A stretch of DNA of 64,000 bases from Flavobacteriales bacterium UBA7666 (GTDB lineage: Bacteria > Bacteroidota > Bacteroidia > Flavobacteriales_D > Crocinitomicaceae), in assembly GCA_002483265.1 (NCBI GenBank), contig DLHO01000022.1, positions 18,308 to 82,307 on the forward strand, in the 5' to 3' direction. The stretch's first letter is position 1. Each line of letters starts with the position of its first letter. A program made the translations under genes and the position numbers. The notes under the pieces were generated by a model, which ran no database searches, was not told the origin of the DNA, and saw only the letters and a program-made list of their open reading frames with translations. Below are positions 33,190 through 35,957 of this stretch, piece by piece.

Positions 33190-34077
33190 GTGGAATTAGC
33201 AATTGACTGGAAGGTAGATTCACAACTGGTAGACGGATGGTCTACACCGAACTTATACGGATTGTTGTTTGTAGGGGGAATGATCTTCGGATACTACATC
33301 ATTAAAAGGATGTTTAAATCTGAAGGGATCTCTGAAAAATACCTCGATAAATTATTGTTGTATGTTGTTCCTGCAACTATTATCGGTGCGCGCTTAGGCC
33401 ATGTGTTTTTCTACGGACCCTATCACGATGGTTTTAACGCAAAAGGCCAGTTCGAAGAAGGATACTTTGATCATCCCCTGTCTATCTTAAAAGTTTGGGA
33501 AGGTGGTTTAGCAAGTCATGGTGCTGCAATTGTGATCCTGATCATGTTGTATGTTTATTCCAAAAAAGTCATTCACCGTCCCATGTTGTGGATTTTGGAT
33601 CGAATCGTAGCTCCCATTGCAATTGCGGGATGTTTCATTCGCCTAGGAAATTTAGTAAATCACGAGATTATAGGTGTTCCAACAGATTTGCCTTGGGGAT
33701 TCAATTTCTTCAATGCCGGCCCGGATTATTTAGTCAACGGGAAAGTAGTTCCGCGTCATCCTGCTCAGTTGTATGAATCTATTACTTATTTGTTCTCATT
33801 CGTCGTTTTGTTTCGAATGTATTGGAAAACAAATGCCAAAGTAATTCCAGGAAGACTATTCGGGATGTTTATGATTCTGATCTGGACTGCGCGATTCACT
33901 ATTGAATTTGTTAAAGTTGGTCAGACAGATCGTGATGATTCATGGGCATTGAATACAGGACAGTTGTTAAGCATTCCATTTATTCTCATTGGATTGTATT
34001 TGACTTTCCGAAAAGTCCCTGAAAAAGAACAAGCCAAATTTGATGAAGCGGTTGCAACACCACTTCCTTTACAATAA
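33190..34077 (+). CDS. lgt: Prolipoprotein diacylglyceryl transferase
   Basis: IIGARLGHV, WEGGLASHG, IRLGNLVNHEIIG, RHPAQLYE and RFTIEF motifs; GTG start. Confidence 0.96.
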   Translation: MELAIDWKVDSQLVDGWSTPNLYGLLFVGGMIFGYYIIKRMFKSEGISEKYLDKLLLYVVPATIIGARLGHVFFYGPYHDGFNAKGQFEEGYFDHPLSILKVWEGGLASHGAAIVILIMLYVYSKKVIHRPMLWILDRIVAPIAIAGCFIRLGNLVNHEIIGVPTDLPWGFNFFNAGPDYLVNGKVVPRHPAQLYESITYLFSFVVLFRMYWKTNAKVIPGRLFGMFMILIWTARFTIEFVKVGQTDRDDSWALNTGQLLSIPFILIGLYLTFRKVPEKEQAKFDEAVATPLPLQ

Positions 34078-34081
34078 TAGA

Positions 34082-34113
34082 GAAAGCCCTTACGATAAAT
34101 GTGGGGCTTTTTT
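34082..34113 (+). terminator. Intrinsic terminator of lgt
   Basis: AAAGCCC...GGGCTTT stem followed by a T-tract. Confidence 0.75.
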
Positions 34114-34172
34114 TATGCTTATTTCGGAATAAAGATCTATTTATTTTGAAGAATTGAGATAGCGGACAGATA

Positions 34173-34360
34173 CTCAATTACACGACCGGTAGAAACGTTA
34201 TAGAATTCCAAATAGTTAGCCGCCCTACTGGGTGTTTCGTAGAAGCGCCAATCAGCTGATACGGTTGCCAATCCCGAAAAGTGCTTGTCATTTGGGATCC
34301 TGATCCCGTCTTTTCGTGGATAGGTCTGTATCGGCTGGTTGGCTGAATGATGTAATTGAG
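34173..34360 (+). ncRNA. Candidate structured RNA of unknown class
   Basis: 10-bp closing stem 34173-34182/34351-34360; 18-bp helix 34247-34264/34326-34343 with three G-U pairs on the + strand; inner hairpins. Confidence 0.45.
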
Positions 34361-34361
34361 C

Positions 34362-34514
34362 AAGAGGCCGCATAGCGGGCGAAGACGAATAGCAACAAAC
34401 GTTAGTGCGAAAGCTATGAGGTAGCAGTTTTGCCTACTTTTTCTGCCTTGGAAAGAGGCCGCGTAGCGGGTGAAGACGCACAGCAACAAACGTTAGTGCG
34501 AAAGCTGTAAGGTA
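34362..34514. repeat. Two 62-bp direct repeats separated by 29 bp
   Basis: 34362-34423 and 34453-34514 are 56/62 identical, including a compensatory T-A to C-G change. Confidence 0.85.
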
Positions 34515-34609
34515 AGTAAGGGGAATAAAGAGTAATTGTATAGAGGGTATCGAAATCTGAACTTAGAACCACTGATTTTTCAATTTTCAATTCGCTGAAG
34601 AATTTAGCG

Positions 34610-34617
34610 TATCTTTG
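34610..34617 (+). promoter_or_regulatory. -7 promoter box for rimO
   Basis: TATCTTTG upstream of the ATG at 34644. Confidence 0.65.
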
Positions 34618-34643
34618 TGCCCCTTTTAGTATCGTTTGATTTC

Positions 34644-35957
34644 ATGAAAACAAAAACACTTCGTAAGAATAAAGTAAATGTCATAACACTTGGATGTGCA
34701 AAGAATACCTTTGACTCTGAAGTTTTGATGGCTCAATTGAAAGCCAATAAATTTGAAGTGGAACATGAAGCAAAGCAAGATGATTCCGAGATTGTCATTA
34801 TCAATACCTGTGGTTTTATCGACAATGCGAAACAGGAATCAATTGATACGATTTTGCGTTATGCAGATGCCAAGAATGAAGGGTTGGTTGACAAAGTGTA
34901 CGTTACAGGTTGTCTTGTTCAACGTTATAAAGACGACTTAGAACAAGAAATTCCGGAAGTAGATGCATTTTTTGGTACAAGAGACTTGCCACGCTTGCTA
35001 AAAACATTAAAAGCAGATTACAAGCACGAATTGGTTGGAGAGCGTTTATTGACGACTCCTTCACATTATGCGTATTTCAAAATAGCTGAAGGTTGCGACA
35101 GACCTTGTTCTTTCTGTGCAATCCCATTGATGAGAGGAAAGCACGTTTCAACTCCAATGGATCAATTGGTAAACTCTGCAAAAAGTTTGGCTGCTCAGGG
35201 AGTAAAAGAGATTTTATTAATAGCACAAGATCTTACATACTACGGATTAGATATTTACAAAAAGCGAAATCTGGCAGAATTGATAGATCAATTGGCTGCA
35301 GTTGAGGGAATCGAATGGATTCGTTTACATTATGCATTTCCGGCAGGTTTCCCAATGGACGTACTAGATGCGATGGTGAAACATCCGAACGTATGTCTGT
35401 ACTTGGATATGCCATTGCAACATGGCTCAACGAAAATTCTTCAATCCATGCGAAGAGGAATCACGCGTGAGAAAACAGAAGCTTTGGTGAATACCATCCG
35501 TGAAAAAGTTCCGGGAGTTGCCATTCGCACCACTATGATTGCCGGATATCCGGGAGAAACGGAAGAAGATTTCCGGGAAATGTATGAGTTTGTGGAACGC
35601 ATGCGTTTTGACCGCTTGGGAATTTTTACTTACTCTCATGAAGAAGATACACATGCATATTCTTTGGAAGATGATGTGCCGGAAGAGGTAAAACGCCAGC
35701 GTGCAGATGAGATCATGGAACTGCAATCAGGAATCAGCTATGAAATGAACCAGGAAAAGATTGGGAAGACGTTTAAAGTTCTTTTTGATCGCATTGAAGG
35801 GGATTATTTCATTGGTAGAACGGAATTTGACTCACCTGAGGTGGACAACGAAGTATTGGTGAAAAAATCGGAAGGATATGTGAGTATCGGGGATTTTGCG
35901 TTGGTTGAGATTACTTCTGCTGATCATTACGATCTTTATGGAAAATTCGTTTTATAA
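34644..35957 (+). CDS. rimO: Ribosomal protein S12 methylthiotransferase
   Basis: TLGCAKNTFDSE, INTCGFI, KIAEGCDRPCSFCAIP radical-SAM motif and DSPEVD in the TRAM domain. Confidence 0.97.
   Translation: MKTKTLRKNKVNVITLGCAKNTFDSEVLMAQLKANKFEVEHEAKQDDSEIVIINTCGFIDNAKQESIDTILRYADAKNEGLVDKVYVTGCLVQRYKDDLEQEIPEVDAFFGTRDLPRLLKTLKADYKHELVGERLLTTPSHYAYFKIAEGCDRPCSFCAIPLMRGKHVSTPMDQLVNSAKSLAAQGVKEILLIAQDLTYYGLDIYKKRNLAELIDQLAAVEGIEWIRLHYAFPAGFPMDVLDAMVKHPNVCLYLDMPLQHGSTKILQSMRRGITREKTEALVNTIREKVPGVAIRTTMIAGYPGETEEDFREMYEFVERMRFDRLGIFTYSHEEDTHAYSLEDDVPEEVKRQRADEIMELQSGISYEMNQEKIGKTFKVLFDRIEGDYFIGRTEFDSPEVDNEVLVKKSEGYVSIGDFALVEITSADHYDLYGKFVL

Follow-up and report, generated by a model that had tools for sequence, protein, structure and literature searches.

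Between lgt and rimO in the window (the whole stretch of 64,000 nucleotides analysed here) lies a piece of spacer DNA that is predicted to fold elaborately, which raises the question of what this structure is and whether it belongs to either of the genes beside it. An earlier note on this DNA placed a candidate structured RNA at 34150-34360, past the lgt terminator and ahead of a promoter belonging to rimO itself, and offered three readings, namely an independent noncoding RNA, an RNA switch, or a relic of a mobile RNA. The fold is present within these coordinates, but the feature extends over about 34114-34575, limits that come from alignment of its ends to the arms of a unit bounded by terminal inverted repeats (TIRs) and are tentative. 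The location was borne out on both sides: a terminator scan places the lgt terminator at 34083-34113, and the rimO -7 box lies downstream of the element and is kept in all relatives, whatever their spacer holds. Of the three readings the mobile relic comes nearest, the segment being one copy of a multi-copy element, while neither a locus-specific RNA nor a switch is upheld by the results below. The parts of the window copy and its borders are these:

34083-34113, plus strand: intrinsic terminator of lgt, a hairpin and T-run
34114-34151, plus strand: left arm, comprising the left terminal repeat in degenerate form, a small hairpin (CTTATT-TCGG-AATAAAG) and then a T-rich TTTTG block
34152-34172, plus strand: leader with a GCGGAC that is semi-conserved in alignments, directly 5' of the closing stem
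34173-34182, plus strand: 5' strand of the closing helix, CTCAATTACA, partner of 34351-34360
34183-34245, plus strand: variable 5' domain, two small hairpins and a conserved single-stranded AAAT.GTTA.CCG.CCT
34246-34344, plus strand: long hairpin, with helices 34247-64/34326-43, 34268-74/34318-24 and 34275-81/34310-16
34282-83/34289-90, plus strand: mini-helix TG/CA of the three-way junction in the long hairpin, where other copies carry an optional 33-nt hairpin
34294-34307, plus strand: near-invariant apical hairpin GGGAT-CCTG-ATCCC
34351-34360, plus strand: 3' strand of the closing helix, TGTAATTGAG, partner of 34173-34182
34362-34423, plus strand: secondary insertion B1, a 62-nt structured mini-repeat that splits the first tail helix
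34424-34454, plus strand: tail core, with helix S1 as GCAG (34424-27) / CTGC (34443-46) and the U-rich loop GTTTTG
34433-42, plus strand: 5' strand of helix S2, CCTACTTTTT, within the tail core
34453-34514, plus strand: secondary insertion B2, which splits the 3' strand of S2 in the tail
34515-34575, plus strand: last part of S2 on its 3' side (AGTAAGG), followed by the right arm up to a degenerate right terminal repeat ending in GAACCACTGAT
34610-34646, plus strand: rimO -7 box TATCTTTG (34610-17) and start codon ATG (34644), outside the element

A mobile repeat in a variable spacer

The gene order around the element is common in the genus, as 26 of 30 fetched Fluviicola lgt loci have rimO downstream, and the spacer between the two genes, about 35 to 1100 nt long, harbours repeats that differ from one species to the next. 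The element itself occupies this spacer only in the genome from which the window comes (hereafter the source genome); the sites of all relatives are without it. Comparison of these loci shows the segment to be a mobile insertion in a spacer that varies between species. As to the other occupants, four GC-rich units of ~58 nt each (GTCCGCCGCGGCGGAAGGCTCCGTCTCACAAGACGGGCAAGCCGAAGGAAAAGCGCTA) follow one another in tandem in the spacer of one genome (G001, L128), and in further species (L122-L127) GC-rich palindromes stand in place of the lgt terminator of the window.

Homologues are abundant and covary, as a search with covariance modelling revealed. BLAST and iterated nhmmer searches found 13 full copies in the source genome, 65-75% identical to one another, along with several fragments, and a covariance model built from the 3' domain alone rather than the full length matched 162 times, in 23 of 36 Fluviicola genomes (0-19 copies per genome) and in none of 25 genomes outside Fluviicola. 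Because the element is present in such numbers in the genome and the genus, the idea of an independent RNA specific to this locus was abandoned. A family-level search added three more genera of the Crocinitomicaceae, with weaker copies (46-73 bits) that have the same architecture and entirely different helix sequences. When 185,579 species genomes were scanned for an exact 19-mer, matches fell in Fluviicola, the few elsewhere failing the covariance model, and the viral contigs searched contained no copy. The repeat is non-autonomous and occurs only in Fluviicola and a small number of sister genera, with elements of 340-470 bp and also tandem arrays of 411-nt units. One record titled Glaciecola amylolytica THG-3.7 (CP034120.1, L101) carries a full copy; since its score and G+C are identical to those of a copy in a Fluviicola genome (G012, L029), the name of this record is probably misleading and out of line with its placement among Fluviicola.

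The mode of spread is most readily seen in a young subfamily, comprising 18 copies of a 462-468-bp unit in three genomes, which ends in TIRs of 14-16 nt (ATCATTGTTGTCCG...CGGACAACAATGAT); 5-bp direct duplications (TCGGC, TAGGA, TCCTA, TTGGA, TCAAA, TGATA and others) flank 11 of these copies. [quoted passage not shown] Most copies, including those of the source genome, have no clear TIRs, and the ends of the window copy are degenerate, with about 10 of 20 positions matching. Its left arm (34114-34151) nevertheless matches positions 5-32 in an alignment with the complete TIR-bounded unit of the young subfamily, and 34515-34575 can be aligned over its whole length with the final 60 nt of that unit, within a right arm whose motif GGAGA.AAAGAG.A.T.TT is kept in many copies. 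The T-run of the lgt terminator appears to be the site at which the element inserted, with TTTTT (34109-13) and TTTTC (34576-80) as a putative, tentative 5-bp target duplication.

The combination of TIRs and 5-bp duplications is indicative of a DDE transposase rather than an omega-RNA or a retroelement, which bears on the proposal that the repeat is a relic of a TnpB/IscB guide-RNA system or a non-autonomous retroelement copied by reverse transcriptase. Orphan HEARO and IS605 RNAs do come to mind for a structured RNA of some 200 nt that has a pseudoknot and exists in many orphan copies, but we consider this origin very unlikely: Rfam gives no match, HEARO and IS605-orfB families included, the TnpB zinc-ribbon domain (PF07282) is absent from the source genome by a search that detects it in 8 control genomes, and reverse transcriptase (PF00078) is absent from three genomes with 16-19 copies each (G018, G019, G011), is present in genomes that have no element, and shows no correlation with it.

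No autonomous element with the same TIRs was found, the matches in five genomes (G013, G030, G007, G019, G011) bordering short elements or ordinary genes, and no cognate transposase adjoined any TIR that we examined. A 136-bp mini-element with the same TIRs has no RNA core (L158 3713-3848; G019 C18:77212-77347), and in G013 and G030, where the core is present 0 times and once, the TIR occurs in 9 and 4 exact copies, several of them at contig ends. The core-less mini-element and the TIRs in core-less genomes therefore indicate that the arms and the RNA core are separable modules. TIR-bounded insertions often lie inside short repeat arrays of the AATTCGNAATT or AATTACG type (L059, L097, L103, L104, L119; L047 4820-4880).

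The window copy has itself been invaded. Canonical copies have no insertion at the first site, GTAATTGGG.AAAGGC continuing directly into ATTTTTGCC where B1 now lies, and B2 is 90% identical to B1 and occupies a site that is also filled in the C3 copy and several others. Because these two later 62-nt insertions split the tail, the function of the window copy may be impaired. The mini-repeat B is a structured repeat in its own right (GAGGCCGC.TAGCGGG.GAAGACG...AGC-hairpin-AGTGCGAAAGCT..AAGGTA) with about 21 matches in the source genome. Three fixed sites in the tail of the main element are taken by B or by an oppositely oriented sister form in about 20 of 78 copies; the stems of B covary (ACAGC/GCTGT, ATAGC/GCTAT), and one internal hairpin differs in length between copies.

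The genes beside the copies are functionally unrelated and none recurs consistently. Both neighbouring genes were called for 73 distinct copies. Between tandem genes, 27 of these have the orientation of the genes and 16 are antisense, and convergent spacers hold 21 copies versus 9 in divergent ones, a bias that is the usual preference of intergenic repeats for the 3' ends of genes and is unlike that of a leader. Some copies begin 7-16 nt past a stop codon. Since 16 of the 43 copies between co-directional genes are antisense, read-through alone cannot transcribe the structured strand. No Bacteroidota -7 box (TAnnTTTG) was found at a fixed distance upstream of the copies, and the only enriched feature there is a TTTG block, which 33 of 75 copies have at -32..-30. 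There is also no consistently open reading frame; a 78-aa frame on the minus strand, which the earlier note had named as a possible coding region, is open for at least 75 aa in only 15 of 78 copies, so that coding conservation is not seen.

These contexts also decide the question of rimO. Two points speak for a cis-regulatory leader or riboswitch, namely that the window copy stands ahead of rimO in the same orientation and that an alternative pairing can form in this one copy; however, relatives keep the lgt-rimO pair without the element, the rimO promoter lies downstream of it, and other copies adjoin unrelated genes in all four orientation classes. The alternative pairing, between AATTGAG (upstream of the closing stem) and CTCAATT, from which two mutually exclusive folds and hence a switch had been proposed, fails the family test and is not conserved, with a mean longest run of 4.9 versus 4.65 in shuffled upstream sequence (75 copies). 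A leader for rimO is hardly credible on these results, and regulation of rimO by the window copy is unlikely because the gene keeps its own conserved promoter downstream.

The fold of the core and its retention in place

A full copy reads, from 5' to 3', left arm, GCGGAC leader, closing helix, 5' domain, long hairpin, linker, tail and right arm. The plus strand of 34150-34362 has a minimum free energy of -76.3 kcal/mol (z -4.93 versus dinucleotide shuffles, 0 of 200 being as good), and the minus strand folds with z -3.10. The two outer helices described for the window copy were confirmed: CTCAATTACA and TGTAATTGAG are perfectly complementary over the 10-bp closing stem, and the 18-bp helix 34247-64/34326-43 contains exactly three G-U pairs (T34252-G34338, T34257-G34333 and G34263-T34327). 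The inner pairings proposed with them gave way to others once the family was aligned. In place of a hairpin ATCCCGAA/TTTGGGAT, covariation pairs CGAAAAG (34275-81) with CTTTTCG (34310-16) and GGGAT (34294-98) with ATCCC (34303-07); instead of a hairpin CCT-ATCC/GGAT-AGG, GGATAGG (34318-24) finds its partner in CCAATCC (34268-74); and the pairing GAAACG/TGTTTC is not conserved by the family, TGTTTC lying in the loop of a small hairpin CTAC/GTAG.

Across the family, the closing helix is CCCAATTAC/GTAATTGGG, preceded by a leader whose CGGAC is retained in other genera too, and the 5' domain, two small variable hairpins in a full copy, is shrunk to about 12 nt in those genera. The long hairpin comprises some 35 bp in three helical segments with a three-way junction at its tip, where GAAAGTGC, CATTTGGGATCCTGATCCC and TCTTT are near-invariant and one arm is the optional 33-nt hairpin, itself covarying. 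In the window, the apical hairpin GGGATCCTGATCCC followed by TCTTTTCG (34293-34316) is flagged as terminator-like by a simple scan; the U-rich tract after this hairpin is paired with GAAAAG in the family consensus.

Compensatory changes were found in 26 of 44 predicted pairs among the 13 paralogues, including four of the eight pairs of the closing helix. In 84 distinct sequences of the 3' domain, aligned by fitting to the covariance model and so biased towards the structure, 93.7% of cells are paired versus 35-59% with the partners slid, double (compensatory) changes occur in 29 of 35 pairs, and 0 of 500 shuffles reach any of these measures. The distant genera provide an independent check, as their helices are almost wholly A-U with complementarity intact, and the loops are invariant across genera. 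G-U and U-G cells outnumber A-C and C-A cells by 127 to 27, and the fold is therefore that of the plus strand, as RNA or as single-stranded nucleic acid. Alignments of copies, both of copies with one another and of orthologous ones, show this plus-strand fold to be held by compensatory substitutions.

Two orthologous groups (the source genome copy at C24:529551 with G018, and G018 with G026 and G019) could be used to ask about selection in place. In these groups the 3' hairpin and tail are 0.89-0.95 identical, and the adjacent spacers and neighbouring coding sequence are 0.53-0.91 and 0.78 identical, respectively. Between C24:529551 and G018 six pairs differ, two by full compensatory swaps (U-A to C-G and U-A to G-C), and of the other four, one is kept through G-U, one gains pairing, one loses it, and one is unpaired in both. 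Within the source genome, cores are intact while arms and TIRs have decayed beyond recognition. The comparison favours selection on the structure in place after insertion, in a small sample in which gene conversion could mimic the same pattern. Retention of the 3' hairpin and tail above the flanks, with compensatory changes, suggests that the element functions at the RNA level. Downstream of the C24:529551 copy lies a further noncoding block of ~370 nt (source genome C24:~529060-529430, L006), whose identity to its orthologue in G018, 82-100%, far exceeds that of its surroundings, and which has no Rfam match at the gathering threshold.

The same observations bear on the possibility that the repeat is a purely selfish MITE relic with no function for the cell, whose fold serves its own spread, for instance as single-stranded DNA or by rendering insertions harmless, or was inherited from a structured master. 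The TIRs and 5-bp duplications of the young subfamily, the patchy copy number (0-19 per genome), the preference for gene 3' ends (convergent 21 versus divergent 9), the lack of a conserved neighbour, and the secondary insertions in the tails of about 20 of 78 copies are all what such a relic would display. Yet DDE-type transposition has no need of internal structure, the core is retained as arms and TIRs decay, loops are invariant across genera, and orthologues conserve the 3' domain above adjacent coding sequence with compensatory swaps in place; we therefore think that a relic of this kind is unlikely and that the element is probably a MITE-type interspersed repeat carrying a selected, strand-specific structured RNA module.

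An interlocked tail

The canonical tail is rich in U and A and reads AAGGCA-TTTTTG-CCTACTTTTTT-TGCCTT-GG-AAAAAAGTAGG, and its two helices, S1 (AAGGCA/TGCCTT) and S2 (CCTACTTTTTT/AAAAAAGTAGG), are interlocked. Among 52 distinct tails 89% of cells are paired, versus 44-58% when the partners are slid; S1 has double changes in 6 of 8 pairs, and S2 is 98.8% paired, with a C-G/U-A swap of 37:13, that is, U-A in 13 sequences. The other genera have replaced both helices outright, S1 by UCUUGAC/GUCAAGA and S2 by UUUCUUUUG/CAAAAGAAA. Because the connector between S1 and S2 is only 0-2 nt, a classical H-type pseudoknot would be strained, and the tail may be either a pseudoknot or two alternative hairpins, S1 and S2 then being alternatives rather than simultaneous.

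The U-run of the tail loop is invariant in the 52 tails and adjoins the A-run of S2; placed along the A-U part of that helix, it runs parallel to the A strand, which is the geometry of U.A-U triples, and from this we infer a triplex between the loop U-run and S2. H-type pseudoknots with triple helices are known from the SAM-II and SAM-V riboswitches, the telomerase RNA pseudoknot and ENE-type protectors of 3' ends. The present tail resembles them in its interlocked helices and in a U5 loop that may lie along an A-U-rich helix, but it has no Rfam match to SAM-II or SAM-V, its connector after the first helix is only 0-2 nt, and neither a ligand pocket nor a poly(A) partner is in evidence in it.

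A second, unrelated structured repeat of the source genome carries an interlocked tail of the same kind. This repeat is about 170 nt long with a closing stem GGCGC/GCGCC (loci L150, L151 and L153), and its copies are the following:

G000 C4:~137530-137720, minus strand: copy of the second repeat
G000 C16:~294160-294360, minus strand: copy of the second repeat
G000 C16:~286080-286290, minus strand: copy of the second repeat

The first tail helix of this repeat covaries (GCC/GGC, GTC/GAC, GAT/ATC), every copy lies directly after a co-oriented gene, and no Rfam match was obtained. Two other roles for the tail were considered and set aside. As an intrinsic terminator, a competing local hairpin GGCA/UGCC with the U-run is possible, yet covariation is not seen for it (GGCA/TGCC in the DNA); as a platform for a start codon, the tail of the second repeat does contain an ATG, but the frames behind it are of 8-130 aa and unrelated.

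Known repeats, possible action and significance

The repeat family is absent from Rfam and, as far as literature searches reached, undescribed. Rfam 15 gave no match to the element at the gathering threshold over the whole window, no relevant match at a permissive E<=10 over 33900-34800, and none for canonical copies or related repeats and loci, which agrees with the earlier note in leaving the fold outside any known RNA class; a literature search found no paper on Fluviicola repeats or RNAs. In kind, however, such elements are already known as structured interspersed repeats or MITEs, among them ERIC/IRU in enterobacteria, bcr1 in the Bacillus cereus group, BOX, RUP and Correia. Like ERIC, bcr1, BOX, RUP and Correia, the present element is small and noncoding, has tens of intergenic copies with a preference for gene 3' ends, is patchy between species and modular with internal insertions at fixed sites, has a predicted RNA fold with compensatory changes and, in at least part of the family, possesses TIRs and target duplications. 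It goes beyond the usual case in the complexity of the fold, in survival across genera, and in an interlocked tail common to a second repeat: unlike ERIC-type repeats, the fold is asymmetric and multi-helix with a three-way junction and near-invariant loops rather than a trivial hairpin of inverted ends, it survives complete turnover of helix sequence between genera, and orthologous copies are conserved above flanking genes.

If the probable reading given above holds, a core of roughly 230 nt would encode a strand-specific, RNA-type structure composed of closing helix, 5' domain, hairpin and tail; the plus strand would be transcribed, and the RNA rather than the DNA would be exposed to selection. 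In the mechanism that we prefer, the core would be a self-contained, nuclease-resistant RNA module whose invariant U5 loop sits in the groove of the tail A-U helix, forming U.A-U triples that shield a 3' end, and it might serve either as a small, stable RNA or as an insulating or transcript-end element. This account of a stable RNA or transcript-end module protected by a triplex-pseudoknot tail is a model that we would rate as tentative, with perhaps a quarter of the probability in its favour. A bolder form of it, in which a new class of RNA (stable, protein-binding or catalytic) rides a transposon and shares a 3' U.A-U triple-helix cap with the second family, seems improbable to us at this stage.

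The module could alternatively be the transcript of an independently expressed family of trans-acting sRNA genes riding a MITE, a counterpart in Flavobacteriia of the FopS RNAs, a possibility that is compatible with the main reading and would be one particular form of it. FopS comprises paralogous sRNAs of Bacteroides thetaiotaomicron, with ~14 copies per genome in species-variable number and spread by mobile DNA suspected; these RNAs are 65-70 nt long and have a single-stranded seed, canonical promoters and demonstrated targets (PMC11697453). The present family belongs to the same phylum and is likewise multi-copy with a copy number that varies between species, as described for FopS (PMC11697453), its structure is strand-specific, some copies lie beyond transcription from any neighbouring gene, and a TTTG block is positionally fixed upstream. 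On the other hand, it has no likeness to FopS in sequence or structure, its length of about 230-300 nt and heavy structure leave little single-stranded seed, the canonical TAnnTTTG box is absent, and no U-tract terminator follows the tail. We consider an sRNA family of this type somewhat unlikely.

For the annotation of the window, the element is best treated as an insertion that is no part of lgt or rimO regulation. If expressed, it would represent a well-populated and covariation-rich RNA family, absent from Rfam, in a poorly studied lineage (Crocinitomicaceae, Flavobacteriales), and a clear case of a transposable element that bears a complex selected RNA structure and not a simple palindrome. 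The tail module found in two unrelated structured repeats is a candidate bacterial triple-helix 3'-end cap and, if such a class of caps proves true, it would be the bacterial counterpart of the RNA triple helices that protect 3' ends in viruses and eukaryotes.
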